Translations under genes and position numbers: made by a program
Notes under the pieces: model-generated
Databases searched by the model: none
What the model saw: only the letters and a program-made list of their open reading frames with translations
Told to the model about the DNA's origin: nothing
Source of the DNA: a virus
IMG/VR virus record: IMGVR_UViG_3300009124_000025
Span: 1 to 50,811 of that record
Strand: one strand, 5' to 3'
DNA: 50,811 nt
In this document: in pieces, positions 825-27,325 of the stretch
Position numbering within the stretch: the first letter of the stretch is position 1
Layout of the letters: each line of letters opens with the position of its first letter

Positions 825-826
825 GG

Positions 827-11100: not shown

Positions 11101-11407
11101 CCACAAGTTCGACAACGAACTTCGAACGCTTCCCGCATCGCTTCAGATCGAAGCAGCAGGCATCGGTCGGCTTAAGTCGGTCGACCGGGTCGACGTTCAA
11201 CTGTTCGAGACGGCCGGGTTGTCGGTGGGTCCGGACGCGGACACGCAGTCGGCTATTTCGCCAGAGTCTTTAACACTCACGTCTGAACTAAAGACGGAAA
11301 CGGTAGAAGCTACGTGGAGCCCTGACGGGCAAGTGTCTTTTGTTCAGAAGATGGCAGTTCCCGCAACGGTGGCGGGCGTCACGCTCAACGTCAATCTTGG
11401 AGGGTAA
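8111..11407 (+). CDS. Tail tubular protein B / nozzle (T7 gp12-like position), 1098 aa
   Basis: TAATG overlap with the gp11-like gene. N-terminus MAVAKLQTSFNSGEISPELFARPELQLHKMGAATLKNW...LRPG parallels the gp12-type N-terminal pattern. Size and synteny agree. Confidence 0.7.
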   Translation: MAVAKLQTSFNSGEISPELFARPELQLHKMGAATLKNWVAKTSGAAQLRPGFEHVDSLPGKTRMIPFRLDGNDMVIAMRAGKFTFYENGLPVSVAGGVNDVFKISDQASPGSIDLGTNTLTFDRSHDFQDLETVVVESSDVMPGSVATVFDYEARPQGPRGLQLKYLSNDPISITSTGSGELYAWKKDQLPRDYQIPIPLADTGGGGSPSILAEDADRSIVRLTNPHGFRKGDQFYWTKDATGSSPATQNPGFSFISYDDRKFEVSAVSFDALGASSASTANDFVGVQPRWGINIYRTDTAGNRPFANTVYATRWYLKGTVLYLRASYGSPDFSAGDYIVATQDVSASLSGPTIADGWALKTDSEPWLGLDNDYAEDDLFEITYAQTEKKIRLAHRDYPTLELSRLDDGTWTSQTLFNEQVNFTASVSATPGAQIGIAAAYDVSGTSAIRFRLTQDAGLGPGDLLYISGVPNLTNGFYVCGPVVNNGVDIVSIVNLSGALTGPSSNSNAGTIIVADSTAKANQRYIVTAVDDKGQEFNRSTITTSVFNLLQNAEAFNTISWTAQEGASAYRIYKEEDGIELFGFIAETGAVTFDDRNIEPDFGRLAPELDTTLVTDPPAAVAFYDQRGVFGGTNRDPQKLLLSSVGRDSDLVSRLIPLDDDRISLQIASREGQTIRHIVPVSELLIFTDTCEWALTTKNTDTLTPSSATIRLQTTVGSNYVRPQVLNNSVLFCSKSDHVHRMSYQMQENGFGGLDLSTKAGHLFDDYVLTDSASQTSRLPVAWYVNSAGWLLGLTYSQEEKVSGWHRHHLAKGMKATSVAVATEGAEDRLYMSAEDADGNHVLLRWGIVNITGVMDTVHLDNARRTKRSEESAATLTITGSNAPGSDVRVTASAPAFDPDCVGEQLFVTDLGLIGRIKTRTSRTEIVVTLIDKGSFKASSTTSTSWGVTVSHERVPHLSGSVDALLQKPDGTVKLTTVDVVDGVARLPYPCQAVHLGHKFDNELRTLPASLQIEAAGIGRLKSVDRVDVQLFETAGLSVGPDADTQSAISPESLTLTSELKTETVEATWSPDGQVSFVQKMAVPATVAGVTLNVNLGG

Positions 11408-11409: not shown

Positions 11410-12063
11410 ATGGCCACCGGTTACATGTTTGACAAGTCTTTCACCGCGGCGATGGACGCGGCCAAGCAGCGGCAAGCGTTCATCAACAACCTAAGTGATT
11501 TCAGTTTTGCGATGTCGATCGGCGGCGCGGTGTCGTCTGCGATCGGGGCTTACTACCAGTTGGTTAACCAGAAGAACCAACTCAAGTCGCAAGCTTTGTC
11601 GATGGAGTTCGCGAGCCAAACCGCGGAGTTGAACGCCAACCTTGCCGAGCAGCAAGTCGCTCGCATTCGAGAGTCTGCGGAAAACGAAATCGGCCGCAGC
11701 AACATGGAATACGCGCAGCAAAAAGGCGCGGCTCGCGCGTCAGCCGGAGGGCGAGGAGTCGTCGTAGACCAAGGTTCTTCCGCAGAGCAGCAGCGAGCCA
11801 TCGACTTGGTTAAGCACATCGACGCGTTGACCATCACGTTGAACGCGGAAGGCCAGATGTCTGATGTGATGATGGAGGCCGCAAACCAGCGAGCCAGCGC
11901 TGCGCTCAGTCGCGTGTCGGCGAAGAACATCAGCAAGACCGCAAAATCGCTGTCTCCTGAAGGTGCGTTTTTGGCTACTGCGGTCGGCGGCGCGGGCAAG
12001 GTAGCGTCCATGTATTACGACCAGTTCGCGTCTCGCAACCGCAGGTTTGGGGGCATCCTTTAG
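11410..12063 (+). CDS. Internal virion / ejection protein (gp14-position), 217 aa
   Basis: Synteny after the nozzle. Has a hydrophobic segment (FSFAMSIGGAVSSAIGAYY), an A/Q-rich helical body and a GGAGKVASMYY C-terminus. Confidence 0.55.
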   Translation: MATGYMFDKSFTAAMDAAKQRQAFINNLSDFSFAMSIGGAVSSAIGAYYQLVNQKNQLKSQALSMEFASQTAELNANLAEQQVARIRESAENEIGRSNMEYAQQKGAARASAGGRGVVVDQGSSAEQQRAIDLVKHIDALTITLNAEGQMSDVMMEAANQRASAALSRVSAKNISKTAKSLSPEGAFLATAVGGAGKVASMYYDQFASRNRRFGGIL

Positions 12064-14543
12064 TGGTTACACCGCGACAATCGTTGCGCGTTTCCGGCGG
12101 GGCGCGGGCTCAGCAGCAGCGCGGCGTCACCCCGTTCCAAGCGTCTAACGAAGCGTCCCTAGTAGGCGACGCCATGCTGACGGCGGGGGTGCAGGGCTTC
12201 CAGCTATCCAAGGCGATGCAGGAAGACTTGGACCAAGCGAACACAAGGATGGCCATCACGCGGTTGTCTGAGCTTCTCAACACGACCGAAGCGGAGTTTG
12301 ATCAAGTCGGCGGGGCTGACGCTGCTGAGGTCTTTACGAAAACTCAGGCCAAGTTGCAGGAGGGCAGGTCCGAGCTTGAGAAGTCGTTGACGTCAAGTCG
12401 TCAACGTCAAGCGTTTGGCCTCGCCGCTGACGCCCGGATGAACGCTGCGTTGACCCGCATGTCGTCTACCCGGGCGAAAAAACTGAAGGACTACAACATC
12501 GCGGCCACGACCGCGACCGTGCAAGAAGCGATTACGAACCGAGTCAACGCGTTCTTAAAAGGCGACGTCCGCGGTTGGATTGCGCACTCGGCTGAGATGA
12601 CGCAGACCATGGACCATCTCGCTCAGCTAACTCAGATCCCGCCAGAAGCTGCCGCGGTGGCGAAAGAGCAGGCTGAGTCAGAAATCCACGCCAACATCAT
12701 GGACGGCTTGCTCAACCAGGGTAAGACGTCGCGCGCTCGCGGGTTCTTGGAAGAGCACGGAGAGATGATCCAAGACCCGGTTAAGCGCACCGGGTTGGAG
12801 AAACGGTTGCAGGCCGCGGAAGACGACGAGGTCGCAGAGCGGGTGATCGACGACATCCGACGAGAGCATCCGACCAGCATCGTTGATCAGCGTCGAGCGC
12901 TTCGAAGCATGAAGCTGTCGGAGGGTGCCCGAAAGAAAGCGCTCGCCAGTCTTCGCTACATGTTCAGCGAAGACCGCGACGAGCGCGAGCGGGAGCGTGC
13001 TGAAGCGCTAGAAGACGCGGAAAACCTAGTCAAACTTGGGCGCCCGCTCCCCGAATCGTTGTCGTCTCGTCTCCGAGATTTGGGGGTGCTAGAGAAGTTT
13101 CAGGCCGCAAACTTCAGGGCGAACAAGCCGCACCCGCGGGAGACGAACGAAGCAGGCAAGTTGCTGATGCTCAAGTTCATCGCGCAACCGTCCACGATGT
13201 TGGAGTTCGGGACCCCAGAAGCGCTGCTCAACGCGGTTCGATTCTCGATGTCGGACGCAGACTTGAAGCAACTTGCGGGCATGTGGGACCAAGCCGTAAA
13301 CCGGCAACTCAACGCCAACGAAATCGTCAAGCGCTACACAGCGGGCAAAGGATCGAGCGCAGGAACCCGGTCCCCGGGGGTTAGCGACGGCATCGCTAAG
13401 TTTGACGGGCTCAAGGCTGACCGCGCGCAGATGCTGTTAAACCAGCTTCGGCACTCGTATCCGGATTCCTACGGTCAAAATCTGGCTCAACCCAAAGACT
13501 TGACCTCCGAGCTTGCGACGGAGTTCTACACGTTGCTCCCGCAAGTCGACGCTGCGGCTAACCGAATTGCGAAGACAGAACAACGCAACCCGAACGAACA
13601 CGAAATCTACCAGCGAGCGATTGATGAAGTCTTAGCGTTGCGCACTTCTAGCGGCCGACCTTACGCGGGACTTGGCCCGGTCGATCGAGAAGCCGCAGAG
13701 CTAGTTATGCCGGACGGGGGGAGGTTCACCCCAGAAATGATGCTGGCCCCCGGTGAGACCGACCCCGCGCTGGCCAAACGTCGACTAGAAAACGCGTTTG
13801 AACAGATCCGCCTTTCTACGGCGCAAAGCTTGCTGAAGCGACAAGACCCTCTGAAGGAATGGGACACGTTGACGCAGGTAGAACGCGACGCGTATGTGCA
13901 AACCGCGGAAGACTTAGTGACGGACTCGATGGCCTACGAAGTGGTTTACGAAGCCCGAAAGCGACTTAACGAACTGCAAGGCACAGCGCGCGAGACGCTG
14001 GATGAATACGACGTTATCAGCGAAGAACTTGAGCGGGCGTCTTCGTTGGGCATGGACGCTCTGAGCCCTGAGCTTAAAGAACGCTCCGCAGGCATCCGTC
14101 TAGGCGAAGGTTTGTGGTCTGCTTGGACGCAGCAGGAGGAGACGCGTCGGTTCGATCAGATGGGCGCGACAGACGTGGAAGTGTTCGTCGAGACGTGGCC
14201 TCGGTTCTACGAGTTGTATGGTTCCCAACTCGCAGCGGTGGGCGGGGCTGGCCCCGGCGTCGGCGTCAACCAGATGTTTGGGCCAGGGCCGACAAACGCA
14301 AACAACGCTAGCGCTGCGGAGGCGCAAATGCGTAACGCCATGGTCAAGATCTTGTTCGGGAACGCGAACCCGTCTGAGCAACAAGCTATTTCGAACGCGG
14401 CGCGAATTGGTGACCGGCCGCAAGGACCGTCGCAACGGCAATTTGTCGACGCTATGCGTTCTCGGTTTGGCATTGAGGACGAAGTTGGAACTCCAGAGTT
14501 CTACATCCAGTTTGGTGAGATCGCTAAGAGGTTCCGCAGGTGA
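12063..14543 (+). CDS. Internal virion / ejection protein (gp15-position), 826 aa
   Basis: TAGTG overlap with the upstream gene. Long helical, charged sequence. Synteny agrees. No enzymatic motif recognised. Confidence 0.55.
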   Translation: MVTPRQSLRVSGGARAQQQRGVTPFQASNEASLVGDAMLTAGVQGFQLSKAMQEDLDQANTRMAITRLSELLNTTEAEFDQVGGADAAEVFTKTQAKLQEGRSELEKSLTSSRQRQAFGLAADARMNAALTRMSSTRAKKLKDYNIAATTATVQEAITNRVNAFLKGDVRGWIAHSAEMTQTMDHLAQLTQIPPEAAAVAKEQAESEIHANIMDGLLNQGKTSRARGFLEEHGEMIQDPVKRTGLEKRLQAAEDDEVAERVIDDIRREHPTSIVDQRRALRSMKLSEGARKKALASLRYMFSEDRDERERERAEALEDAENLVKLGRPLPESLSSRLRDLGVLEKFQAANFRANKPHPRETNEAGKLLMLKFIAQPSTMLEFGTPEALLNAVRFSMSDADLKQLAGMWDQAVNRQLNANEIVKRYTAGKGSSAGTRSPGVSDGIAKFDGLKADRAQMLLNQLRHSYPDSYGQNLAQPKDLTSELATEFYTLLPQVDAAANRIAKTEQRNPNEHEIYQRAIDEVLALRTSSGRPYAGLGPVDREAAELVMPDGGRFTPEMMLAPGETDPALAKRRLENAFEQIRLSTAQSLLKRQDPLKEWDTLTQVERDAYVQTAEDLVTDSMAYEVVYEARKRLNELQGTARETLDEYDVISEELERASSLGMDALSPELKERSAGIRLGEGLWSAWTQQEETRRFDQMGATDVEVFVETWPRFYELYGSQLAAVGGAGPGVGVNQMFGPGPTNANNASAAEAQMRNAMVKILFGNANPSEQQAISNAARIGDRPQGPSQRQFVDAMRSRFGIEDEVGTPEFYIQFGEIAKRFRR

Positions 14544-17500
14544 CCGGACAAGACATCCCCCCGTCAATCTATGACGAGATCCTGAACCGCCACCACAACG
14601 AACGCAGCCTGCGCAGGGCTGCGAACGTTGCCGCCGGGCTGGCGGACAAGCGAGACCCGAGCGAGATCGGGGAAGCCTTGCAGATGGCGCGCAAGTTCAA
14701 GTCCCCGTTGGTTCCGGGTCTTGAAGCGTTGCACCAAGCCAAGGTGAAAGAAGCCGCGCAGGGGGTGAAGCCGCGCAGCTTCGCCGAGCGCTTCCCGGCT
14801 TTGTCGCGTCGGTTGGAGAACCCGGACATCGACTTCACGTCGATGACCCGCGACGACATGGGCAACCTGACGGAGACGGAGAATTGGTATAGCTGGCTTG
14901 GGCGTTCGTTCGACGGCAGCTTCACCGAGACGATGGCTAAGGGTCTGCGGCTCGCTGGTATCCCTATCCAAGAAGAGTCCAAGATTGACCGAGAGAAGCG
15001 GAGACAGATCGCGCAGATTCGGGGTGAGCGCGACACGGGGGCTGTAGCCTGGGGGCAGGACGCGATCGAAGTCGTCAAGTCTCTCGCCGCGGTTGTCGGC
15101 GGCGGCCTCGTCGGCGGGTTGGTGGGCGGCCCGCCTGGGGCCGCGGTCGGAGCAACGTCGGTTGGTTACGTGCTTAACTCCGGCGACGTCTACGGAGCCT
15201 TGCAAGACGCGGGGTTCACGCCGGAACAGTCAGCAGGCTACGCGCGCGGGTGGGGCGCCGTGATGGCTGGAATCGACGCGGCGTCCGCGGGCCTAGCGTC
15301 AAACGCGTTCAGTAAGACAATTGGCAAGCGTTTGCTCGGCGATTTGCTCAGCAAGAAGCTGACAGTTGAAGCTAAGCAAGAGTTGTTGCTGGCCGGGATC
15401 AAAGAGCACTTGATCGGGTGGAGCACAGAAACGATCACAGAAGTCGTGCAGCAGGGCGCGTCGATCGCGGCCCGGTATCAGGCACACCTCAAATACCGAG
15501 AAGGCGAAGCGTTTGACGTCGACATCAAGGGCGAACTCTTCGACACGTTCGTGCACACAGCCCGCGGCATGGCTGTCGTCTCGGGTGCCGGGGCCACCGT
15601 TCGAGCTATACGAGACCAGCGCCGGGCCGCGAACGCCAAGTTGACCGCGGAAGCGCACCAGCGGATGGAGACGCTGGAAGCCAACAGCAAACTCCGGCAG
15701 CGAGACCCGGAGTCCCGAGAAGAGTTCAACAACGACGCAGCCCCGGACAGCATCAAGACGGCCTACATCCGAGCCGACAAGTTTCTTGAGCAAGTCGAAG
15801 CTGCGGAGAAGAACGACCCGGACTTCAGGGAAAAGCTAGAGAACAGCCATCCTGGCTTGCTGGCGAAAGCGCAGGAAGCTTCGCAATCTGGCGGCAACGT
15901 AGAGGTCCCGGTCGGGCAGTGGTCAACGTTGGCGCTGGGCGACTTCGGCCGGAACTTGATGCCGCACACGGTCTACCACCAAGACGCAGACACGCAGTTC
16001 GAGCGCGGAGAGATCGACAAGATCGGCGCAGGCTACGAGCCTTTGATGGCTGAAGCGGCCAAGCGAGCCGAGACTGACTCCGAGTTCGCCAAGCTGATCG
16101 AAGGGATCTACGACTACTTCTACGAGCGCGGCGGCGTCGACCAACCCAACATTACTCGGGACCAGCGCGCGGCAAACGCGTCGTTGTCTCGGGCGATCAT
16201 CATGTCGCTCGCTAGAGACGAAGGAATTGAACTGGCCGAGTATTGGCAGAAATACGGCCCGAGCATCGCCGGGTCGATGCAGTCGTCTACCGAGGTGTCG
16301 CAGCAAGCTCTGCCCGAGCTAGTAACGTCGATCTCGGCTGAGGAAGAAGCAACTACCGAGAACACAAACCCGACAACCCAGATCGGGAGCGTCACCGTCC
16401 AAGCCGTTCGCAAGAACGTCTACCGATGGCACGAACTCGGGATCTCCGGAACCTTGTCGGTCAACGACAAGGGCGACGTCCAGATCGACACCATCGACGA
16501 CATGGTCGACGTGAAGTCACTTGGCCGAGTTCTACAAGAACTGTCCAAGCAGTTTGACCGGATCGGTGTCGCGGGTCCGTTGGTTGCAGCCGCAAAAGAA
16601 GGGTTGCAGAAGGTTGGCGTTGACCCCGATGCGGCCACGCAAACGTCTGGCGAAGACTTAGACGCGCTGCTCAAGAACTGGGACACCGTCAACAGGAGCC
16701 GACGATCTGATGAATGGTTTGACGGCGCAAATGTAAACGAGGAGTCGCGCTCAGGCTTCCAAGATGCTTTGCAGGAGGGAGGTGACCGACTCCAGTCTCA
16801 CGGCATGAGTAAGGAGTCAACTTTGACCGGGGCTGTTAGGAACCTGCTCAACATGCTTGGGCAGGGTTTGGACCCTGCGCGACGTGGCGGGAAACTAGAC
16901 ACCGCGCCTCTGGTCACAGGAGAGCAGGGGTCTGGCGCAGGGATCGGAACTGCCAGCGGGACATCTTACAAAGACGGCCCGTTCATTCTGGTTGCTCGCG
17001 AAGGACAGGGGCTGTCCGGCAACCTTGATGGGCTGGGGGCTATTCTCGTCAACGAGACTAACGCCGAAATCGTTGAGGCTCTTCGGCAACAGGTGCAGGC
17101 GATCCGGCCCGACGTAGTAGTTGAGTCTTACGCCAATGCTGGGTCAGCGGTTCGTCAAGTAATCCAAGGTCCGTCTGCTCGCTCCGATTCTGATGTTGTC
17201 CGGCAAGACGAGATCGAAGACGAAAGTCAAATCGTCGTCGAATCGACGGACGAGCAGCGTCGCGACCGGGTCTACCAGACGCCGCAATTTAAACAGTGGT
17301 TCAGAGACTCCAAGGTTGTTGACGACGAGGGCAAGCCGCTCATCGTCTACCACGGAACTACCAAGAACTACGGCGGGACGTTTGAGACAGGAACCTTGTC
17401 GGTGGAGAGCGACCTCGGCGCGGGCTTCTACTTTTCTAGCAGCACTTCCGACGTCAACTGGAACTACGCGAACCCGCTGGGTGCAGACGTTCAAAACCGA

Positions 17501-20500
17501 ATTGGTCGTCGTCAAGAACAGCTAATGGATCAAGACGTCGAAGAGTCGGAAGCAGGCGCTATCGCTCTCGAAGAGAACTTGCAGAACAAGGGCCGCATCA
17601 CCCCTGTTCTTTTGTCTATCCAAAACCCTGTCATTCTGGGCGGCGACCAAGCGACACGGTTTACTTACGAGATGGAGGTAGACGAGGACGGCGACCCGAC
17701 CGGAGAAGAGTCTGGAACGCTTCTCGATCTGATCGACGCGCTCTACGAAATTGATCTCGGAATCGGCGACGCAGGCGTGCTGCCCGAAATAGCCGCGCGC
17801 ATCATGCAACTCGCGGACGACGGCAGCGTCTCAGCCAACGACGTCATCGAGTTGCTAAGAAACGAGTTCCAAGACGAGATCGACGAAGACGGTAACCTTA
17901 TAGCCTACGACATACCTCGCCGGGTGTTTGCGGAGATGGGGTTCGATGGGTTCATCGACCACACCGTCCAACAAAAGTTCCCGACGATGGAGATCCCGGA
18001 CGGCACGACGCACTACGTCGCGTTTAAGCCGACGCAGATCAAGTCGGTCAACAACGAGGGCGGGTTCTCAGTTCGCGACCCCGACATCTTGTCGCAGGAC
18101 GAGATCGTTGACGAAGCATCGCCGGAACAGTTCCGCGACTTCGTTATCCAGTCAGAGCAATTCCAACGCTTCTTCGGCGACTCCAAGGTTGTCGACGAAT
18201 CAGGCAAGCCGTTGATTCTCTACCGGGGGCTCCGCTCAGTGAAGGGGCTTAGCCGGGGTGGGGCTACGGAACGAGGCCGCGCAACGATGTCGTTCACCGA
18301 CAACGCGGACGTGGCCGGGGTTTACTCGGGCATTGACAGCAGCGGAGAAGTTCCGCGCGCGAACCGCGGGCTTTTTCAAACCCCGGTCAGCAGTTTGACC
18401 CCGGTGTTCGTCCGCATGGTCAACCCGCTGGACCTTACGAAACTCGGTGCGACCGTCTCGTTGTGGGACGTGATCGAGGGCATGAACTGGAGCTTCGACG
18501 TCGAATACGGAGACCCCAACCAAGACAAACAAATCGGCTACGAAGACGTCGCCAGCGCAATTGAGGGGCTGGACGACATGGCGTTCAACACGAACGCGTT
18601 TTTCCGTCTCCCCAGCAGCGCCCAAATGTATGCCCCCGGAGGCATCAGATCGTTCCAAGAGTTAGGTGACCTGATCCGTGATCTCGGTGCCCAAGAACCC
18701 GAGTCGATTGAATTGTTTTTGATGGAGACGGAGATCGACGCCTTTGTTCTGGGCGACGATGCGGGGTTCGTCTCGCTCATGCAGCAAGCTGGGTTTGACG
18801 GATTAATCCATAGCGACCCGTTTGTTGGAACCGGAATGATGTCGGACGACGCGTCCAACGCTTTGGTAAGGGTCCCGGGGTCATTCGGAGACGACACCAT
18901 CCACACCACGTGGAGACCGTTCTCGACCAATCAGGTCAAGTCGGTAAACAACCAGGGCACGTTCGACCGGAGCGTTGACGACATCCTGCTGCAAGACGAA
19001 GAACCGCCGAAGCCAGACGAGGTCTTGGCTTGGGGCGGTGCTGCCGGAGACCTAGCGCGCAAGAATCAGTTCAAGCGCAGGCGCGACTACAAGATGGCGA
19101 TCCACACGCTCCCCGAGTCGGACGCGGTTCGCGCCATGTCGCCGGAAGAGCGCACCGCGCACATCCAGAAGGTAGGGGTCCGCGATGCCTTGTTCGCGCT
19201 AGAGCACAGCCCGAACGCGGTCGGTTGGTATGACAAGAAGATCCAAGCCGCGGTCAAGACGCTAGCCGTCCTACACCCGGAGATCTTGACCAAGAAGCAG
19301 AAGCGACTCCAGTTCATGTGGGCGCTAGCGGTCACGTCCAACGGACTGAAGGTTGATGACAACTTCAACTTGGCGGGAGAGGTCTTTCAAAGCGCGGGTA
19401 AGCACTTCCCGACCGACGTCGGGCGCGGCGACGCGGCCAACCAAATCAACCTCGGGCTCAAGCTCTACAACACGCTGGTAGACAAGTGGGGTGTAGACAA
19501 GCTCGCCGCGTTCATGCTGACGCCGACGACGCCGAAGCAGTTGCAAATCCTGTTCGAAGCGGAAGGCATCGAGCACGAAATCAGCGGCTCCGAACTAATC
19601 ACCCAAGAAGTCTACGGGGCCTACGTTCTTGGCCCGAAGATCGGCAACGGGTTCTTCATGAACCTGCACGGAGAGTTGAACCAACTGACGATGGACCGGT
19701 GGTTCATGCGGACGTGGGGCCGGTGGACGGGTTCGCTGTTCAAGTTCAACGAGGAGTTGGCAGCGAAGCAGATGTCATCCTTCCGGTCTGCGCTGATGAG
19801 GCTGACCAAGTCGAAGAACTGGAGCGTGATCCGAGACGACGTCAACGCGCTCTACGGCTTCGACATCTTCAACACGCCGCTCGAAGAAGTGGCTCGGCGA
19901 ACCCAGCGGCTAGCGACGAAGAAGGAGACCCGCGACACGTGGTTCTCGATGAGCCCGGAGATGAACGATCTCCGCAAAGCGGGTAACCGAGTAGCAACCG
20001 GCTTGGACGGACAAGTCGAAATCCCGGCAAACGGATCTATTCGAGCAGACATTCGGAAGCACTTGACCAGCATCCTGGCCGAGATCCAAGCGATGCCGGA
20101 ATACGTCAACTTGTCGATGGCCGACTTGCAAGCTGCGCTCTGGTATGCCGAGAAACGGCACTACGAGCAGGCAACCGAAGGCAGCGACACCGTTGACGCT
20201 TACGACGACGACGAAGCTCCGGACTACGAGAACGCCGCCCGAGACTACGTGATGTCGCGAGGCGACTATCGCGGCACAATCGAAGCCGCGGTAGCGGAAC
20301 CAGACATCGCGTTGCGGCTGGCAGACCGCGCGTTCATCGAACCGTCAATCTTGGCCCCAGCCGGTCTGCCAGAATCGCAACAAGCCGAGATGCTCGGAGA
20401 CGCCGCTGCTCGAATCACCGCGCTGAAAGCTGAAGAAGACGTCGAGTTCACGTGGAAGCACGTCCCGGTGTCGAAGAACTACGAGAACCGGTTTTTCCAT

Positions 20501-23500
20501 TTCCACGCAAAAGATCAGCTAAACACGTCAAAGCGCAAATACGAAGAACCCCAAGTCATGGCGCACGCCGTCTACGTGCCGGGGAAGAGCTACCGAAACC
20601 TTTGGTCAAACGTTCCGTCTGCTCAAGAAACCTACCTCGTAGAACTCAAAACGAAGGCCAGGACTTTGATCACTTTCCAGCAAGTGAGCGAAGCCCGCCC
20701 CGCGCCCGACGCGCTGTCTAGCCGCTTGTTTGCATTGTTTCTGGCGAAGCACGTTGACTCGACAGACAATCAGCCGGGCCAGAAAACGTTTGGGGCGTTC
20801 CCGCAAGCCGTGTTCGGCGTGGACGACAACGGGGAACTGTTGGGCACAAACGACAGCCAACCTTACACCCCCGGCGATGACGAGTTTGACTGGACGGTAG
20901 ACTACCAGATCATGCTAGCGGCTCGGCGAGCCGGGGTTCGCTACATGCGTCTCTCAGACAAGCGCGAAATAGACGCAGCCTTGGCCGCGGGCGCGATTCC
21001 TGTCAACTACACGAAAGCCCAAAGGGGGGCTCCTGTCAGCAGCGGTAACACCGCGTCACGGATGGCGGAAGGGAAAGCCGGAGCAGGCTACGACGTCTAC
21101 GGGTTTGTGTTCGGCAAGCCGGGTGTGTCCCCGATCAAGTCTTACGACGACTTGATGACGAACAGTTCGTCGCTGACGGTGAACCCAGATTCGGCCACTC
21201 AGCGACGTCAACTCGACGAGATGGCAGACGGCGCGCAAGTCAAAATGTGGCCGCGTCGCAACCTGATAGCCGTTCACACCATGAACGAAGACAAGCTCCT
21301 GAGCGCGTTCGACGCGGATTTGGACGGCTTGACTGCCCCGAGCATTGCGGTTTCGCAAGCCACAACAGGGCACAGGTGGCGCGGTTCTGTCCAAATCGTG
21401 CTCAAAAACTCGGCCGTGCTCAACGACGGCCAAATCTACGACTCAGACGTTTGGTCGCAGCGTTACAGAGAGCCCGCCGTCGTTACCGATTACGCGATCA
21501 CGGCAGAGACGGTGCGTCTCGTTGCCGAAAGGTTGCTCACTAAACGACACCAAGAGTCGGGGGCTCCGCTTGTTGACATCGAAACAGCGCTAGACATGGC
21601 GGCGTCGATGGCTGACTCGTATTTCGGGAACACGTTGCCGGGTGCTCGCGACTTCTTCGACGCGTCGCAGCAAACGTTGCGCGACATCCTCGCAGGCAAA
21701 CTAGGTGTGCCTCAACTCGCAATGGCTCCAGGCGAAACGACTATTAGGCGAGTAGTCCGACTGTTCGAAGCCGCAGGGATTGGCGAGTTGTTTTTTGGGC
21801 CGTTGACCAATCTGTTTGAGTATGAGTCGGGATCCATGAAGACAGTTGGTCGGCTCATCTACCGCCCGGTGAGCACCACGACAACGATGGCTAACCCGAA
21901 GCCGAGCGAAGTCATTAAAGTGGCGCGGCTCATGAGAACTTTGGCTTCCATACAAGCTGGAGTCAACATTGAGACTCTGATCAACGGGCACACATACCGA
22001 GTCCGTGAAGCTGAGTTCCTGGGTGAAGACCCTCTAAAAGTCGAGCCTGAGCACAACCTGCCGCGGAACACCTCGGCAACGCAAGAAGCTGAAGACGGGA
22101 TCAAGCAAGCAATTCTTGACGAGCTTGAGAAAAACCCAGCGCTGCTTACCACGCTTAAGGAACACCTAGCGTGGATTCGCGAGACTGTCCTGGGGCCTGA
22201 TGGCACCGCAATTGCGGCGCAGGGGCTCGGGTCGACGGCGATGCCTGGAGGCATCGCAATTTCGGTAACAGACCCAACGATTAGCACAGATGCGCGCAAA
22301 GCCGGGGTGTGGTCGAGAGCGCTTCAGCCTTACCTTGAAAACATTAGTCAGCAAGACGGCGAAACTGAGGCGCAATTTACGGTCCGGGCTTTGGCGCAAG
22401 CCCTTCAAGGTATCGCCGAAATAGACAAATCGACCGGGGTCAAACAGGCACTGTTTACTCACGGAGAGGCCAAACAAGTTCAACAAGCCATAGAAGACTT
22501 GGCGGGCCAAAGACGAATACTCAAAGACACAGGAGAGGACGTCACCAGCGACGCACTTCTCCGCATCTTCCAAAACAGTCTTACCGACCCCATGGACGCT
22601 CGGGGTCAAGAATCCGTATTCAGCATTGACTTGCCGCAGCTTCGGACTGCGATGGGTCGACAATTGTCGGCCGACACCATTAACGAAGTCGCTCAGTCTA
22701 GGCGCGCAGTTGTCGTTGACCGCAAAAATCAACAGGTCGCGCACGACCGAACGCGGGTGCTGGAAGGTGAGTTCCTTTCGTCAGGTAAAGGCCCCAAAGC
22801 ATTCGCGGGGGCACCCGGGAAGCCTCTGTTTTACGGCTCGGCTATTTTCAGCTTGATGCTGGACGAACGTTTAGGCGCCAACTACGACGCCGCAATCACG
22901 GTGCTAGACTTGCGTCGAGTTACGGTTGCCCTCTCAAACGAGAACAACCCGACAGACAAAGACAAAACCATCAGACGGTTTCTTGACACGAACACGGTGC
23001 TCAAAACGCGTCTCCAGATGGGGGTTGGGGATAGCGTGGATCGAGTGATTATGGACATCCAACGCTTGTGCGCCGCGCTTAACGTCCTGTCCCCGGACGA
23101 AAACTTGCCGGGGCAAACCCCGGCAAGTCAGGCTAGATTCGCCAAAAACCCTGACCTCACCCCGGAGCAAGCGCAGCTATATGTCGACTTCCTCAACTCG
23201 CTGCGGCGAGCGGGAGAGGAATACTACGAAGCCAAGCCCATCAAGACGGTCACCTGGGACGACATGGGGGTAGTGCTTATCGGGGACTGGCTCGGAGACG
23301 ACGTTAAAAAGAAGCTGGAGGCGGAACTAAAGAAGCGCAAAGTTCGAACCATGCGCCGGACCAACCTCGAAGGTAGCTCGCTGCATGGTGCTTTGCAGAA
23401 GTTGCCCAAGTCTGCGCGACTTGACAAAGACATCTTGTTCCAAACGGAAGAAGGTGAGTTGGAAAGCGGGTCGACGTCGGGCCGCGGTGGCCCCCGAGGC

Positions 23501-26500
23501 GGCTACAGCCGCAAGCTCAACTCCATCTTCCTGAACGAAAGCGCTGACGCATCCACGTTGATGCACGAGATGGCGCACTTCTACTTGGACGAGCTAACCC
23601 GCATCGCGGAAGAGCAAGGCCCGGATTCGGAGGCATACCGCAAACTGCAAACCTTGGTGCAGTGGATGGGCATGCCGTCAGTCGATCACTGGATGGCGCT
23701 AAGCCGGGACCAAAAGCGAACCGGGCACGAGGCGTTCGCGCATTCTTTTGAGCGGTTCCTTTACGACGGGGTGTCGCCGAACACCGCGATGGAGAAGGCG
23801 TTCCGCGGATTCCGCAAGTGGATGATCGCCATCTACCACGACGTCGAGACCCGGCTGAACAAGCAATACCAGAAGACAAGTGGTGGGGAAGACCTGCCCG
23901 CGCTGACTCCGGACGTGCGCGAAGTCTTCGGTGCCATGCTGGGCGTCGAGGCGGAAGCGAACTCGTCGGTCGAGGCTGCGGACTTCGAGTCGTTGTTCCA
24001 GACGGAAGAAGAGTGGGTCAAACTAGGCGGAACTCCGGAGGAGTATCGGCGACTGCAAGAGATGCACCGGGAAGCGGACGAGAAGATGCTCGACGACTTG
24101 ACCCGTGCTCGCTTGCGCGCGATGGCCTACGCGGGCAACTCGCAGGACGCTGAGCGCAGAAAGCTGCAACGCCAATATCGAGAAGCCCGAGCCGCGCTCA
24201 AGCCGGGGATCGAAGCCTCGGTCCGCAACTCGGTGACCGAACGCGCTCGCTCGTGGCTGCGCAACGGCCTGCACCTGGACGAGAACGGCGAAGTCATTTC
24301 GACGATGGGCCGGGTCACGACCAACAAGCTGAACCGGGGGACGGTCAAGGAGATGGTCGACGCGCGAACGTTTAAGCGCCTCGACGAGATGGGCGTGCTC
24401 AACGATGAGGGCGCTGACCCCTCGGTCGTGGCCTCGATGTTCGGGGTCGACTCCGGCGAGACCCTGCTCGACGCGGTCGCCAACGACCCGCCGATGGAGC
24501 AAGCCGTAGAACGCCGTCTGAAGGCCGAAATGCGGCGCAAGCACCCTGAGTTGACCGACCCGAAGTTGATCAAGGAGCAGATCGCTGAGGCCGTCCACAA
24601 CAAGGTCCGGCACCAGATCATCGCGCGGGAGTTGCAATACTTGGCCCGGGAAGACCGGTCGCACCAATTGTTGTGGAAGGCGGCCAAGCAGGTCGCGTTT
24701 AAGCAACTGGCCCTCACCCCGGTGCAGAACATCTTGCCGTCGCGCTACTCCGTCTCGGCCCGCAAAGCGCGCAACGCGGCCCGCCAAGCCCTGAAGGAAG
24801 GCAACCGGGACAAGGCGATGCAGGCCAAGCGGCAAGAGATGCTGGCCGAAGCCTTGGTGGCCGCAGCGACTGAGGTCCGTAAGGAAGTCCAGAAGTTCGA
24901 GAAGCTGGCCGCGGTCGCGCGCAAGTCGGACAAGAAGTTGCGCAAGACGCGCGACATGAACTACGTCGAGGTGATGCGCGCAGCGCTAGCGTTTGTCGAC
25001 GCTGGCGAGAAGGGCGTGTCGCCGCAGCAGGCCCTCAGCAACATCAGGCAATACGCGCCCGAAGTCCTGACGAACGTGCAGAAGCACTTGGAAGGACTGC
25101 AAACCATGATGTCGGAGCTTGGCATGCTCAAGCCGACCGACCGAGTGAAGCGCTACATGAAGCTGCCGCTTGACAAGTTCCGGCTAGTGGCCGGAACCGT
25201 CGAGATGCTGGACGGGGTCAGCAAGGCTTCGCACTCCATCACGCTGGAGGGCAAGAGGGTCAACCGCGAGCAGACCGTGAAGGACGCGTCAGACCAACTC
25301 GACCTGATGTATCAGGACGAGGTCGATCGCGAAGAAAGCGGGTCGCCGAACACATGGGACAACCTTGTCGACCGGGTTCGATCCTACAAGCATGCGCTTA
25401 CTCGTCCGGAGCACTTGTTCCGCGAGATCGGCGGCGTGTTCCCGCAGTTGTTCGCGCGCATGAAGGACGCCGCGCTCAGCTACCGACGCATGGCTCGGGT
25501 CCTCACCGACGAATACGCGAAGGACTTGAAGGGGCTGAACCTGCGCGAAGACCGGCGGAAGATCCGAAGCGAAGAACTTAAGTTCGTCTTCGGCCGCGGC
25601 TCGGTGCCAGCAAAGGTCGAGATCCTCGGGATGCTGCTGCACTTCTACAGCCACGGGGCCGACAGCCAAGGCATCAGCAACCGCGACAAGCTGTTGGCTA
25701 GTGAGGGTTGGACCGAAGACGGGGTGAACAAGTTCGTCAACGCCATGGTCAAGCAGAAGATCTTGACCGCCGAGGACTTCGACTTCATCCGCAAGGTCTA
25801 CGCGCGGAACGAGAAACTGATCCCGCAGATCCAACGCGCGCACTTCAAGCGGCTTGGCTACTACATGGAACTGCTGAAGGTGGAGGAACAAGACACGCCC
25901 TTCGGCCCGGTGAAGGGATACATCCCGGCCAGCCCGGATCGCCGACGCGTCGGCCGAACGATGAAGTTTGACGAAGACAACATCGCGGAGATGCACGGCA
26001 ACATGCCGATGCGCAACGACGGCTTCACCAAGAGCCGCAGCGAAAAGGTCGCGATGAAACTGGACTTCAACCTGGGCGGGTTGACCCGGCACTACGCGCA
26101 AGTCGCCAACTTCGTGCACATGCAACCGGCTTACGCAGACGTGGCCAGCATCCTGCTGCACCCGCAACTGCAAGCCAAGATGGAGGAGAAGTTCGGGCGC
26201 ACGTTCAACAACGCGGTGATCGACTCGTGGCTGAAGGCGGCCACGAACCAGACCACCGAGCCCGCGATGAACATGATCGAGAAGGTTGTCGACGGCATGA
26301 GCCGCAGCGCGAAGACCGCTGTCATGGCCGTCAACATCCCGGTCGCGCTCATGAACCTCACCGGGTTCGGGCCGATCCTGCGGGAAGTCAAGCCGAGCTA
26401 CTTCATGCGCGCGGCGTTCCGTTACATCACCGAGATGCCGACCGTCGTCCGCGAAGTCCGCAAGTTCAAGTCGATGGACGAACGCATCGGCAAGCAGATG

Positions 26501-27325
26501 TTCGAGGCGGAAGCGATGACGAAGGAGATCGTCCTCGGAACGTCGCCGTCCGCTAAGATCCGCAAGTTCGGTCGCTTTGTGTCGCGCAACGCCTACCTGC
26601 TGCACGTAATCACGCAGCACCCGGTAGACGTGATTGGCTTCTTGGCCAGCTATTCGCAAGCGCTGGACGAGGGCAAGACGCGGAAGCAAGCGGAGCGGAT
26701 CGCTACGTCGCTGATCGACCGCACGCAGATGGCCAACGCCCCGGAAGACCTGACGCAATTCGAAGCGGGCGGCCCGCTCATGAAGGCGGTGTTCCCGTTC
26801 CGCGGGTGGGCTATCAACTTCACGAACCACGCGATCCGCAGTCTGAGGGCCGACGTGCGGAACAACGAGACCACGGTCGAGAAGGCAACTGCGTTGCTGA
26901 TGACCTACACGATGACGATCCTGATGCCGTCGTTTGGTGCGTTCATCATCGGGGCTTGGCTTCGAGACTTCGGCGAGGGGGACGACGAAAACGAAGTGTT
27001 CACGTTCGGCAACTTCGTCAAGTCGCAAGTCGACACCGTGCTCGGCGGTCTGCCGGTCTTCGGCGACATCGCGCGCGTCGGCATGGCGAACCTGGATGAT
27101 GAGACTTGGAACAACCGCATGCCTAGCTTGCCGTTCGCCAAGCTGAGCGAACGGCTCGGCAAGGGCGCCGCGTTGTTCGCCGACGACGACCCGTCGTATA
27201 AGGACATGGCCGATTTCGCTGGCGCGATGGCGGCTGCGCTGGGCGCAGGCATCGCCGACCCGGTCATCAAGCGCCTCGGGCTCGCGCTGGACGACGACGG
27301 CGGAAGTTATCTCCTCGGACGCTAG
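14540..27325 (+). CDS. Giant 4,261-aa polyvalent internal virion/ejection protein (gp16-position) with two ART-like modules, a HEXXH zincin motif and terminal membrane helices
   Basis: Uninterrupted 12,786-nt ORF with a GTGA overlap to the upstream gene. Gly-zipper VVGGGLVGGLVGGPPGAAVG (~15.09-15.18 kb). ART-like modules at 17276-18070 and 18161-18967. HEMAH at 23564-23578. Hydrophobic helices near 26.3, 26.9 and 27.2 kb. Confidence 0.9.
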   Translation: MTGQDIPPSIYDEILNRHHNERSLRRAANVAAGLADKRDPSEIGEALQMARKFKSPLVPGLEALHQAKVKEAAQGVKPRSFAERFPALSRRLENPDIDFTSMTRDDMGNLTETENWYSWLGRSFDGSFTETMAKGLRLAGIPIQEESKIDREKRRQIAQIRGERDTGAVAWGQDAIEVVKSLAAVVGGGLVGGLVGGPPGAAVGATSVGYVLNSGDVYGALQDAGFTPEQSAGYARGWGAVMAGIDAASAGLASNAFSKTIGKRLLGDLLSKKLTVEAKQELLLAGIKEHLIGWSTETITEVVQQGASIAARYQAHLKYREGEAFDVDIKGELFDTFVHTARGMAVVSGAGATVRAIRDQRRAANAKLTAEAHQRMETLEANSKLRQRDPESREEFNNDAAPDSIKTAYIRADKFLEQVEAAEKNDPDFREKLENSHPGLLAKAQEASQSGGNVEVPVGQWSTLALGDFGRNLMPHTVYHQDADTQFERGEIDKIGAGYEPLMAEAAKRAETDSEFAKLIEGIYDYFYERGGVDQPNITRDQRAANASLSRAIIMSLARDEGIELAEYWQKYGPSIAGSMQSSTEVSQQALPELVTSISAEEEATTENTNPTTQIGSVTVQAVRKNVYRWHELGISGTLSVNDKGDVQIDTIDDMVDVKSLGRVLQELSKQFDRIGVAGPLVAAAKEGLQKVGVDPDAATQTSGEDLDALLKNWDTVNRSRRSDEWFDGANVNEESRSGFQDALQEGGDRLQSHGMSKESTLTGAVRNLLNMLGQGLDPARRGGKLDTAPLVTGEQGSGAGIGTASGTSYKDGPFILVAREGQGLSGNLDGLGAILVNETNAEIVEALRQQVQAIRPDVVVESYANAGSAVRQVIQGPSARSDSDVVRQDEIEDESQIVVESTDEQRRDRVYQTPQFKQWFRDSKVVDDEGKPLIVYHGTTKNYGGTFETGTLSVESDLGAGFYFSSSTSDVNWNYANPLGADVQNRIGRRQEQLMDQDVEESEAGAIALEENLQNKGRITPVLLSIQNPVILGGDQATRFTYEMEVDEDGDPTGEESGTLLDLIDALYEIDLGIGDAGVLPEIAARIMQLADDGSVSANDVIELLRNEFQDEIDEDGNLIAYDIPRRVFAEMGFDGFIDHTVQQKFPTMEIPDGTTHYVAFKPTQIKSVNNEGGFSVRDPDILSQDEIVDEASPEQFRDFVIQSEQFQRFFGDSKVVDESGKPLILYRGLRSVKGLSRGGATERGRATMSFTDNADVAGVYSGIDSSGEVPRANRGLFQTPVSSLTPVFVRMVNPLDLTKLGATVSLWDVIEGMNWSFDVEYGDPNQDKQIGYEDVASAIEGLDDMAFNTNAFFRLPSSAQMYAPGGIRSFQELGDLIRDLGAQEPESIELFLMETEIDAFVLGDDAGFVSLMQQAGFDGLIHSDPFVGTGMMSDDASNALVRVPGSFGDDTIHTTWRPFSTNQVKSVNNQGTFDRSVDDILLQDEEPPKPDEVLAWGGAAGDLARKNQFKRRRDYKMAIHTLPESDAVRAMSPEERTAHIQKVGVRDALFALEHSPNAVGWYDKKIQAAVKTLAVLHPEILTKKQKRLQFMWALAVTSNGLKVDDNFNLAGEVFQSAGKHFPTDVGRGDAANQINLGLKLYNTLVDKWGVDKLAAFMLTPTTPKQLQILFEAEGIEHEISGSELITQEVYGAYVLGPKIGNGFFMNLHGELNQLTMDRWFMRTWGRWTGSLFKFNEELAAKQMSSFRSALMRLTKSKNWSVIRDDVNALYGFDIFNTPLEEVARRTQRLATKKETRDTWFSMSPEMNDLRKAGNRVATGLDGQVEIPANGSIRADIRKHLTSILAEIQAMPEYVNLSMADLQAALWYAEKRHYEQATEGSDTVDAYDDDEAPDYENAARDYVMSRGDYRGTIEAAVAEPDIALRLADRAFIEPSILAPAGLPESQQAEMLGDAAARITALKAEEDVEFTWKHVPVSKNYENRFFHFHAKDQLNTSKRKYEEPQVMAHAVYVPGKSYRNLWSNVPSAQETYLVELKTKARTLITFQQVSEARPAPDALSSRLFALFLAKHVDSTDNQPGQKTFGAFPQAVFGVDDNGELLGTNDSQPYTPGDDEFDWTVDYQIMLAARRAGVRYMRLSDKREIDAALAAGAIPVNYTKAQRGAPVSSGNTASRMAEGKAGAGYDVYGFVFGKPGVSPIKSYDDLMTNSSSLTVNPDSATQRRQLDEMADGAQVKMWPRRNLIAVHTMNEDKLLSAFDADLDGLTAPSIAVSQATTGHRWRGSVQIVLKNSAVLNDGQIYDSDVWSQRYREPAVVTDYAITAETVRLVAERLLTKRHQESGAPLVDIETALDMAASMADSYFGNTLPGARDFFDASQQTLRDILAGKLGVPQLAMAPGETTIRRVVRLFEAAGIGELFFGPLTNLFEYESGSMKTVGRLIYRPVSTTTTMANPKPSEVIKVARLMRTLASIQAGVNIETLINGHTYRVREAEFLGEDPLKVEPEHNLPRNTSATQEAEDGIKQAILDELEKNPALLTTLKEHLAWIRETVLGPDGTAIAAQGLGSTAMPGGIAISVTDPTISTDARKAGVWSRALQPYLENISQQDGETEAQFTVRALAQALQGIAEIDKSTGVKQALFTHGEAKQVQQAIEDLAGQRRILKDTGEDVTSDALLRIFQNSLTDPMDARGQESVFSIDLPQLRTAMGRQLSADTINEVAQSRRAVVVDRKNQQVAHDRTRVLEGEFLSSGKGPKAFAGAPGKPLFYGSAIFSLMLDERLGANYDAAITVLDLRRVTVALSNENNPTDKDKTIRRFLDTNTVLKTRLQMGVGDSVDRVIMDIQRLCAALNVLSPDENLPGQTPASQARFAKNPDLTPEQAQLYVDFLNSLRRAGEEYYEAKPIKTVTWDDMGVVLIGDWLGDDVKKKLEAELKKRKVRTMRRTNLEGSSLHGALQKLPKSARLDKDILFQTEEGELESGSTSGRGGPRGGYSRKLNSIFLNESADASTLMHEMAHFYLDELTRIAEEQGPDSEAYRKLQTLVQWMGMPSVDHWMALSRDQKRTGHEAFAHSFERFLYDGVSPNTAMEKAFRGFRKWMIAIYHDVETRLNKQYQKTSGGEDLPALTPDVREVFGAMLGVEAEANSSVEAADFESLFQTEEEWVKLGGTPEEYRRLQEMHREADEKMLDDLTRARLRAMAYAGNSQDAERRKLQRQYREARAALKPGIEASVRNSVTERARSWLRNGLHLDENGEVISTMGRVTTNKLNRGTVKEMVDARTFKRLDEMGVLNDEGADPSVVASMFGVDSGETLLDAVANDPPMEQAVERRLKAEMRRKHPELTDPKLIKEQIAEAVHNKVRHQIIARELQYLAREDRSHQLLWKAAKQVAFKQLALTPVQNILPSRYSVSARKARNAARQALKEGNRDKAMQAKRQEMLAEALVAAATEVRKEVQKFEKLAAVARKSDKKLRKTRDMNYVEVMRAALAFVDAGEKGVSPQQALSNIRQYAPEVLTNVQKHLEGLQTMMSELGMLKPTDRVKRYMKLPLDKFRLVAGTVEMLDGVSKASHSITLEGKRVNREQTVKDASDQLDLMYQDEVDREESGSPNTWDNLVDRVRSYKHALTRPEHLFREIGGVFPQLFARMKDAALSYRRMARVLTDEYAKDLKGLNLREDRRKIRSEELKFVFGRGSVPAKVEILGMLLHFYSHGADSQGISNRDKLLASEGWTEDGVNKFVNAMVKQKILTAEDFDFIRKVYARNEKLIPQIQRAHFKRLGYYMELLKVEEQDTPFGPVKGYIPASPDRRRVGRTMKFDEDNIAEMHGNMPMRNDGFTKSRSEKVAMKLDFNLGGLTRHYAQVANFVHMQPAYADVASILLHPQLQAKMEEKFGRTFNNAVIDSWLKAATNQTTEPAMNMIEKVVDGMSRSAKTAVMAVNIPVALMNLTGFGPILREVKPSYFMRAAFRYITEMPTVVREVRKFKSMDERIGKQMFEAEAMTKEIVLGTSPSAKIRKFGRFVSRNAYLLHVITQHPVDVIGFLASYSQALDEGKTRKQAERIATSLIDRTQMANAPEDLTQFEAGGPLMKAVFPFRGWAINFTNHAIRSLRADVRNNETTVEKATALLMTYTMTILMPSFGAFIIGAWLRDFGEGDDENEVFTFGNFVKSQVDTVLGGLPVFGDIARVGMANLDDETWNNRMPSLPFAKLSERLGKGAALFADDDPSYKDMADFAGAMAAALGAGIADPVIKRLGLALDDDGGSYLLGR

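Follow-up and report, generated by a model that had tools for sequence, protein, structure and literature searches.

In the 50,811-nt IMG/VR virus record IMGVR_UViG_3300009124_000025, the whole of which we refer to as the window, a single open reading frame (ORF) at positions 14540 to 27325 on the plus strand encodes a protein of 4,261 aa. We propose, with a probability of about three in four, that this giant protein is a polyvalent ejection protein, that is, an internal virion protein at the position of T7 gp16 (IVP-D) in a podophage resembling Bordetella phage BPP-1 and epsilon15, and that it combines a conserved chassis with swappable enzyme cargo. A reading made from the sequence alone (the sequence-only reading) had arrived at a polyvalent, ejected internal virion protein, and this idea is now supported by gene order, by the presence of ADP-ribosyltransferase (ART), PBECR5, and HExxH modules, by homology to BPP-1 Bbp10, and by a marked depletion of cysteine. 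We infer that the protein is present in the virion, is delivered, and has enzymatic activity.

Reality, position, and composition of the giant ORF

The giant ORF is real, single, and read in one frame throughout. It spans 12,786 nt including the stop codon, begins with GTG, and specifies a 471-kDa protein with an isoelectric point of 5.3. Translation of 14540 to 27325 reveals no internal stop over 4,261 codons, a run expected by chance with a probability of about 10^-58 at the base composition of the genome, and the remaining two plus-strand frames carry 163 and 117 stops across the same interval. The G+C contents of the three codon positions follow the pattern GC1>GC2<GC3 in all 200-codon windows of the ORF, and this uniform signal, together with the stop-filled other frames, speaks against both a hidden frameshift and an assembly chimera. 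In the sequence GTGA, the start codon overlaps the TGA that ends the upstream 826-aa gene, as had been noted earlier, and it lies 7 nt downstream of a Shine-Dalgarno sequence, AAGAGG. The window ends in an exact copy of its initial 4,514 bases (1 to 4514 match 46298 to 50811), implying a unit genome of 46,297 bp, circularly permuted or circular; genes in the overlap are listed twice, such as that for the major head protein, found at 2897 and 49194. The ORF list, the translation, and the unit length thus confirm that one ORF accounts for 27.6% of the genome (12,786 of 46,297 bp). A protein identical to the giant protein is already in public data (JGI/IMG), as a singleton. When the ORF was compared by Megablast with 50,697 phage records, no match was obtained, phmmer of the whole protein against PDB sequences gave none, and NCBIfam searches with ten tiles of the protein returned nothing meaningful. 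A single-protein scan of GTDB genomes for a host was also without a match, closer alignment leading only to distant relatives in metagenome-assembled genomes. Self-BLASTP detected no internal repeats at E<=1e-3, which indicates that this is not a repeat protein and that its two ART modules are old or independent copies.

PHROGs and Pfam assignments gave the gene order terminase, portal, protease, major head protein, Bbp16 homologue, tail tubular A-like protein, nozzle, T7_gp14, 826-aa protein, and giant protein. The Bbp16 homologue, related to the cement protein of BPP-1, lies upstream of the tail tubular genes. These encode a tail tubular A-like protein of 997 aa (5118 to 8111, plus strand), in which a gp11-like domain is found only at aa ~800 to 967, and a nozzle or tail tubular B-like protein of 1,098 aa (8111 to 11407, plus strand). 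They are followed on the same strand by the gene for a gp14-type internal virion protein of 217 aa (11410 to 12063; Pfam T7_gp14 at 32.9 bits against a cut-off of 27, and phrog_418) and by that for an 826-aa protein, assigned to the gp15 position from its location (12063 to 14543). Downstream of the giant ORF, on the other strand, are genes for a DNA polymerase, an exonuclease, and a helicase, and the ORF therefore sits between the tail and internal-protein genes and the replication module. This is the arrangement of T7, epsilon15, and BPP-1, where the gp14- and gp15-type genes are followed by the gene for the largest internal virion (ejection) protein. The proposed T7-type order gp11-gp12-gp14-gp15-gp16 accordingly held, with the Pfam T7_gp14 gene lying two genes upstream of the giant ORF. 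The same position, after gp14-like and gp15-position genes, is occupied by the counterparts in BPP-1, Limnohabitans phage DC33, uncultured phage ctQRb9, Caulobacter phage Jess A, and L019, the contig that encodes the closest relative.

The giant protein contains a single cysteine, where 38.7 would be expected from the other genes of the phage (P=5e-16). The three proteins of the operon have 0 cysteines in 217 residues, 0 in 826, and 1 in 4,261, and the other phage genes 0.5 to 1.5% cysteine. T7 gp15 (0 of 747) and T7 gp16 (0 of 1,318) have none, the corresponding proteins of BPP-1, DC33, and Jess A have 0 to 1 cysteine each, and those of epsilon15 are likewise depleted. In the giant protein, the depletion spans the cargo as well as the chassis, as would be expected if the whole polypeptide passes unfolded through the tail and the oxidizing periplasm. 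Such depletion may, more generally, characterize proteins that are ejected through the tail. In published work, Bbp10 is listed as the IVP-D (T7 gp16) homologue of BPP-1 (Hardies et al. 2016; PMC4819975), and internal virion proteins are described as hosting "domains destined for the cytoplasm," the virion RNA polymerase (vRNAP) of N4 residing inside an IVP-D homologue (PMC4819975).

A conserved chassis and a variable cargo

Sequence comparison divides the giant protein into a conserved N-terminal region of ~576 aa, a variable cargo of ~2,400 aa, and a conserved C-terminal region of ~1,280 aa. Both ends are homologous to Bbp10 and to thousands of relatives, and the middle differs between relatives. 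This anatomy was derived from local BLASTP against the DC33, ctQRb9, Bbp10, and Jess A proteins, against 190 retrieved relatives, and against P0042, the closest relative. The variable part amounts to ~290 aa, with PBECR1, in Bbp10 (2,052 aa), to 320 aa in Jess A gp39 (2,039 aa, as in its close relatives), and to ~1,200 aa, with one ART, in both DC33 gp45 (3,125 aa) and the ctQRb9 protein (3,209 aa). In tblastn searches of the 50,697 phage records, the C-terminal 1,281 aa matched 12 records at 22 to 29% identity and >90% coverage; the matches are the gene at the equivalent position in BPP-1-like phages, and Pseudomonas AF and others match too. With the cut-off at E<=1e-3, an exhaustive HMMER search with the core recovered 7,095 cluster representatives; at E<=1e-30 it recovered 2,199. 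The core was at the C terminus in all of them. Among the top 150, 139 near-full-length proteins range from 1,869 to 4,390 aa (median, 2,742); only four of the 139 reach 4,000 aa, and the giant protein is the second longest. Pfam LPD22 was found in 13/13 of the longest relatives, and the pool of cargo domains recognized by Pfam in relatives comprises PBECR1, ART-PolyVal, PBECR5, DUF7178, LPD23, and ParB_N. The domain string, which the sequence-only reading could not assign to any described protein, thus belongs to an expanded member of a family defined by LPD22, a zincin, and the Bbp10 core. Proteins of ~1,250 to 1,320 aa that appeared to consist of the core only were considered as an ancestral gp16-sized form, and this idea was dropped; one of them, P0139, starts 55 nt from the end of its contig, and they are probably truncated calls.

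Comparison with P0042 (3,364 aa) illustrates how the cargo changes. Its contig, L019, carries collinear genes, and the proteins flanking P0042 are 34 to 58% identical to those of the window. The two large proteins share 54.5% identity over the N terminus, 40% over the region of module X and PBECR5, and 45% over aa 2667 to 4261 of the giant protein. Between these stretches, aa 577 to 1493 of the giant protein (917 aa, comprising orphan segment A and both ARTs) replace a 239-aa linker of P0042 that to the eye appears to be of low complexity, and aa 2376 to 2666 have no counterpart in P0042. P0042 is thus ~900 aa shorter and lacks the ART pair.

The conserved N-terminal region (aa 1 to 576; 14540 to 16267, plus strand, as for all features of the giant ORF) is 54.5% identical to aa 1 to 541 of P0042 and is matched in BLASTP by the ctQRb9 protein, Jess A gp39, Bbp10, and the DC33 protein; in all, the N-terminal ~590 aa are common to the syntenic relatives. 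It includes an LPD22-like segment (aa 34 to 118; 14639 to 14893) that scores 21.8 bits, below the Pfam cut-off of 28.6. The aligned N termini of relatives score much higher (Bbp10, 88.5 bits; DC33, 80.9 bits), and P0042, to whose N terminus aa 34 to 576 of the giant protein are 54.5% identical, passes the LPD22 cut-off. A Gly-zipper hydrophobic segment (aa 168 to 213; 15041 to 15178; Kyte-Doolittle peak, 1.74) is a candidate membrane-insertion element, and a Gly-rich hydrophobic stretch is kept in the family consensus. A Gly-zipper or transmembrane stretch had been placed at the start of the protein; the stretch is present, at aa 178 to 213, but it lies within the N-terminal region and not at its very start. 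Family profiles of this region matched N4 gp50 weakly at aa 302 to 409 (E values of 0.013 and 4e-4 from two profiles; probability, 34.7%), and pairwise BLASTP of the region against N4 gp50 found nothing.

The best-defined cargo consists of two ART modules, and the presence of two ART-like modules was thereby confirmed. ART-PolyVal (PF18760) scored 69.7 bits against a cut-off of 31.2, in two stretches, aa 928 to 1175 and about aa 1210 to 1480. In a MAFFT-based alignment, which considers sequence only, module 1 (aa 905 to 1190; 17252 to 18109), which has an internal insert, retains the H-Y-D triad in the motifs VYHGT, GFYFSS, and GFDGFID. Module 2 (aa 1195 to 1490; 18122 to 19009) has the corresponding motifs LYRGL, TMSFTD, and GFDGLIH, in which R and S stand in place of H and Y and D is retained. 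Further along, cargo shared with P0042 (aa 1901 to 2375; 20240 to 21664) contains a PBECR5-like RNase match at aa 2239 to 2306 (21254 to 21457), with PBECR5 (PF18814) scoring 32.2 bits against a cut-off of 25. This match corresponds to the block "LIAVHTMNEDKLL...", which had been linked to large polyvalent proteins.

Module X (aa 1494 to 1900; 19019 to 20239), which lies between the ARTs and the PBECR5 region, is a recurrent all-alpha module with the motifs NAVGWYD, LGPKIGNGF, and LTMDRW..RTWGRW.G. It has 32 homologues at 31 to 45% identity in which the motifs are sharply conserved, and its AlphaFold2 model is all-helical, with a predicted local distance difference test score (pLDDT) of 85.7 and a predicted template modeling score of 0.81. 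Foldseek of the model against PDB gave no significant match, and Pfam found no family in 31 of the homologues. The block beginning NAVGWYDKK had also been linked to polyvalent proteins: it is indeed a recurrent module in relatives, but it falls in no Pfam family, and neither module X nor the orphan segments matched the Pfam LPD families. In a profile search of PDB sequences, module X hit only Huntingtin and TBP, which we read as low-complexity artefacts. The module also occurs as a free-standing 559-aa gene at 8001 to 9680 of a 71.9-kb phage-like metagenomic contig (L005), where two LPD38 genes lie ~2.7 kb downstream and a Tad3-domain gene lies ~7 kb away on the opposite strand; these surroundings hint at an anti-defence neighbourhood.

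Two orphan segments and a pre-core region make up the remainder of the cargo. Orphan segment A (aa 577 to 904; 16268 to 17251) aligns with only 1 to 4 of the 190 relatives and is absent from P0042. Orphan segment B (aa 2376 to 2666; 21665 to 22537) has no detectable homologue and is the only region containing cysteine; a protein search with aa 2330 to 2985 gave no match, but that search is word-indexed, and its word limit means that this is not proof of absence. The G+C content at third codon positions (GC3) varies along the ORF in a mosaic fashion, at 0.80 to 0.90 in the core (the capsid gene, for comparison, has 0.87), with dips to 0.63 to 0.67 at aa 601 to 1000 and to 0.58 to 0.60, the lowest values, at aa 2401 to 2800. 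These windows overlap orphan segments A and B, respectively, and the GC3 values suggest that the orphan segments were acquired more recently than the core. The pre-core region (aa 2667 to 2980; 22538 to 23479) is common to the closest relatives only and ends in the sequence DKDILFQTEE. This is one instance of a junction motif, D(P/D/K)DIL(S/L/F)Q(D/T)E, that closes each ART module and recurs just 5' of the zincin (aa 1183, 1482, and 2965; 18086 to 18103, 18983 to 19000, and 23432 to 23449), giving three occurrences against 0.49 in shuffled sequences. The strict form occurs in 9% of relatives, its median distance upstream of HExxH being 35 aa, compared with 0.5% of control windows. The motif could mark a place where modules join or where the protein is processed; the idea of a general cleavage site was set aside, since only 9% of relatives have the strict pattern, and the motif is kept as a lead.

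The C-terminal region begins with a zincin-like metallopeptidase (aa 2981 to 3120; 23480 to 23899) containing HEMAH at aa 3009 to 3013 (23564 to 23578), E3064, and E3071. The HEXXH motif noted earlier is thus present, and 24 diverse relatives show no variation at H3009, E3010, H3013, E3064, and E3071 (core positions H29, E30, H33, E84, and E91). The AlphaFold2 model of the core shows a strand-strand-helix layout at the zincin, and profile searches gave subthreshold matches to Spartan (E=0.06), Peptidase_M78, DUF6782, and MPTase-PolyVal (PF18818; E=0.12). In addition, aa 700 to 1000 of Bbp10 served as a seed for the zincin family CLCA_X of Lenart et al. (PMC3650047). The zincin is followed by the conserved helical core (aa 3121 to 4261; 23900 to 27322), and phrog_9880 extends over both (aa 2981 to 4216; E=2.9e-197). 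The C-terminal hydrophobic helices previously described are three in number, at aa 3928 to 3946, 4119 to 4137, and 4225 to 4250 (aa 3928 to 4250 as a whole; 26321 to 27289). The core model is largely helical (pLDDT, 83.6) and has 92 matches in a viral predicted-structure library, all of them C-terminal pieces of long uncultured-phage proteins. The labels attached to these proteins, which derive from their cargo, include LPD, ART-PolyVal, MuF-C, nuclease, type I restriction enzyme, and N-acetyltransferase (GNAT), and the core is therefore, by comparison of predicted structures and sequences, a widely used chassis. An antisense ORF of 579 aa (25289 to 27028, minus strand) lies inside the core-coding region; long antisense ORFs are frequent by chance in coding sequence of high GC3.

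Several features of the neighbouring genes deserve mention. The 826-aa protein has no muralytic domain detectable in Pfam and only a weak match to a PHROG annotated "endolysin" at its N terminus; its similarity to the product of the syntenic ctQRb9 gene is confined to the N-terminal ~220 aa, and it shows no BLASTP similarity to Bbp11. The counterparts in BPP-1 and ctQRb9 are annotated as a transglycosylase and a lysozyme, and no peptidoglycan hydrolase was found anywhere in the internal-protein operon of the phage of the window. The 997-aa tail tubular A-like protein has a weak SASA (sialate O-acetylesterase) match at aa 654 to 702, and L019 has the same layout of tail genes (1,010 and 1,095 aa). 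A gene at 44029 to 45792 encodes an unassigned 587-aa "virion structural protein." No separate tail-fibre gene was recognized among the ORFs of at least 100 aa (~27 larger ones scanned), so that the tail tube proteins may incorporate a function in receptor binding or depolymerization. Nor was a phage RNA polymerase seen among the ORFs scanned, and early transcription is therefore presumably carried out by the host enzyme, which would be one plausible ART target. The replication module (27776 to 38491; DNA polymerase, exonuclease, helicase, and primase), part of which is on the opposite strand, has a G+C content of 0.64 to 0.67, and the tail and internal-protein region (5000 to 27000) lies below it, at 0.56 to 0.62. 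At 179 to 724 and 1042 to 1368, 5' of the head genes, are genes for a small protein with sigma-factor/helix-turn-helix-like matches and for an HNH endonuclease.

A model for delivery and its alternatives

If the giant protein is a polyvalent ejection protein, a few copies would be packaged in the capsid through the conserved core. On infection, they would exit unfolded through the portal and tail channel, before or along with the DNA. The N-terminal Gly-zipper and the C-terminal hydrophobic helices would then insert into the inner membrane, as modelled for T7 gp16, so that the cargo, and with it the helical core, would face the cytoplasm. There, host proteins would be modified by the ARTs with the use of NAD+, and RNA would be cut by the BECR-fold module, with the effect that defence would be blunted, or host machinery redirected, before any phage gene is expressed. 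The zincin may cleave the polypeptide, releasing individual modules.

A number of observations weigh against this interpretation. In the literature, we found no report of Bbp10-family proteins in a virion proteome or shown to be ejected, and published mass spectrometry of BPP-1 describes two major capsid bands only. The PBECR5 match covers profile positions 13 to 82 of 239 only, less than one third of the model, and ART module 2 is without the H and Y of the family triad; for these two reasons, some cargo modules may be inactive. About 600 aa of the cargo, the orphan segments, have no assignable function, and the zincin is backed by its invariant motif and weak profile matches only. With respect to the kinship with gp16, a core profile built from 48 sequences and aligned by hhalign to the single sequences of T7 gp16 and epsilon15 gp17 gave E values of 0.62 and 0.22, in what is a low-power test, and Foldseek of the core model against PDB gave no match at E<=1e-3, with no gp16 entry among the 50 best matches listed. 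T7 gp16 refolds between states, which weakens any comparison of folds. Hardies et al. obtained the link between Bbp10 and IVP-D only with joined subgroup hidden Markov models (HMMs; PMC4819975).

The leading alternative is that the giant protein is a polyprotein precursor, cut by the zincin before or during assembly, so that the core or some fragments are packaged and the cargo either acts in the producing cell or is discarded. The invariant zincin lies exactly at the boundary between cargo and core, and the junction motif is held at a conserved distance of ~35 aa upstream of HExxH (9% versus 0.5%) and repeated after each ART; processing before packaging has moreover been discussed by Iyer et al. 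and inferred for P1 DdrB (PMC5512222). However, the depletion of cysteine over all cargo modules is hard to explain if the cargo stays in the producing cell, late-expressed ARTs and RNases would be of little obvious use there, and both N4 gp50 and plasmid polyvalent proteins are transferred full length (PMC5512222). We therefore regard a precursor as clearly unlikely.

Database labels point to a different function, since Jess A gp39, Octadecabacter OANV1 gp16, and Bbp10 are described as "lysis protein" or "lysin containing a beta/gamma crystallin motif," and T7 gp16 itself carries a transglycosylase. A lysis or cell-wall-degrading virion protein acting on the envelope is nevertheless very unlikely. 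Searches of Pfam, NCBIfam, and PHROGs with the giant protein, whole or tiled, detected no crystallin domain and no muralytic domain, the N-terminal lytic transglycosylase included; the modules that can be recognized, NAD+-dependent ARTs and a BECR RNase, have cytoplasmic substrates; and the labels were apparently inherited from the Bbp10 record. Size, location in the virion module, and share of the genome recall instead the ~4,500-aa DarB-type antirestriction proteins of Bcep22-like phages, such as JC1 gp69 (4,515 aa, 22.1% of the genome), but the absence of any helicase or methyltransferase domain detectable by Pfam or NCBIfam, and the recovery of BPP-1-like rather than Bcep22-like phages by tblastn against the 50,697 phage records, make such an assignment highly improbable. 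Finally, an assembly chimera or genes fused by sequencing errors, for which it can be said that the protein is a database singleton from one metagenomic contig, is scarcely credible in view of the uniform one-frame coding signal with 117 to 163 stops in the other frames, the Shine-Dalgarno sequence and the start overlapping the upstream stop, and the collinear relative and hundreds more that share the layout of N terminus, cargo, and core in single ORFs of 2,000 to 4,390 aa.

The ejection model can be extended, more speculatively, to the whole group. In this extension, which we consider unlikely as a package, the N- and C-terminal chassis would be a general delivery system of BPP-1/epsilon15-like podophages, cassettes would be inserted at a (D)P.IL(F/L/S)Q junction, the zincin would cut there after ejection to free the effectors, module X and both orphan segments would represent new anti-defence enzymes, and the absence of cysteine would be a usable signature of proteins that travel through the tail.

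A single protein, consisting mostly of interchangeable cargo, takes up more than one quarter of a 46-kb podophage genome, which illustrates the extent to which a small podophage may carry ready-made enzymes into the cell. Relative to its collinear relative, the giant protein differs in size by a discrete ~900-aa block that holds both ARTs, and the family is therefore naturally suited to studies of how cassettes are exchanged in delivered effectors. By-products that may be of use outside this phage are a recurrent module of ~400 aa with a confident predicted fold and no known relative, and the ~600 aa of orphan cargo. Cysteine depletion, common to the established ejection proteins T7 gp15 and gp16 and to the full length of the giant protein, could, if general, help to flag ejected proteins in metagenomes. 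Overall, these results extend, and do not alter, the current picture of polyvalent and internal virion proteins.

Comparison with known systems

The class to which the giant protein would belong is already published, in the form of polyvalent proteins (Iyer et al. 2017) and of IVP-D-type proteins with cytoplasmic cargo (Hardies et al. 2016). Particular to the giant protein are the ART pair with its R-S-D variant, module X, ~600 aa of orphan cargo, and the clean gain of a cassette relative to a collinear relative. Like the polyvalent proteins of Iyer et al. (PMC5512222), it combines at least two unrelated effector domains in a single polypeptide whose gene lies among virion/late genes. LPD22, ART-PolyVal, and PBECR5 are Pfam families derived from that study, and ART-PolyVal, PBECR, LPD22, and zincin peptidase are all named in it (PMC5512222); its main text does not mention BPP-1, gp16, or internal virion proteins.

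T7 gp16 (IVP-D; 1,318 aa), the part of the T7 ejectosome that occupies the inner membrane and the cytoplasm (PMC8954989), resembles the giant protein in being the product of the last gene of a gp14-gp15-gp16 operon, in being largely alpha-helical, and in having zero cysteines. Both have hydrophobic regions near the two ends around a long central part, and in the T7 gp16 model two membrane regions flank a cytoplasmic part (PMC8954989). In contrast to gp16, the giant protein has no N-terminal transglycosylase, has 3.2 times the length, and carries enzymes whose targets are cytoplasmic; an N-terminal transglycosylase is, however, not universal in the T7 gp16/IVP-D family (PMC8954989). The description of the giant protein as a gp16 expanded about threefold thus stands as to position and length, but no profile or fold match to T7 gp16 was obtained. 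The link to T7 gp16 rests on synteny, composition, and a published chain of HMMs, and strict membership of the gp16 family is not established; that the giant protein works like gp16, at its position, is well supported. Its likeness to Bbp10 and to Rauchvirus-like relatives (Jess A gp39, DC33 gp45, and Octadecabacter OANV1 gp16) extends to position, an N terminus that carries LPD22 or, in the giant protein, an LPD22-like segment, a ~1,250-aa HExxH core, and near-zero cysteine. It differs from Bbp10 in carrying ~2,400 aa of cargo rather than ~290 aa with PBECR1, the cores being 22 to 29% identical.

Other large or enzymatic virion proteins offer functional parallels. N4 gp50, the vRNAP (3,500 aa), is likewise an IVP-D-type ejection protein with an enzyme that acts in the cytoplasm (PMC4819975) and a zincin fusion (PMC5512222), but its cargo is an RNA polymerase and not ART or RNase modules, and the core profile compared with the whole of gp50 gave no significant match to the core and none to the gp50 C terminus. 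phi24B gp47 (2,811 aa) and the DarB-like proteins of Bcep22 and JC1 (~4,500 aa) are also giant LPD/effector proteins encoded in podophage virion modules and found in purified virions; JC1 gp69 (4,515 aa), detected in virions by mass spectrometry (PMC9144972), bears out the earlier statement that virion proteins of more than 4,000 aa exist in Bcep22-type phages. These proteins have LPD5, LPD1, LPD38, and MuF-C or DarB-like domains, belong to other phage groups, and showed no sequence relation to the giant protein detectable in our searches. Finally, T4 Alt provides a precedent for the proposed action of the ART cargo, as it is a head-packaged ADP-ribosyltransferase that is injected with the DNA and modifies host proteins (PMC5512222), differing from the giant protein in being a free-standing myovirus protein from a different ART clade.

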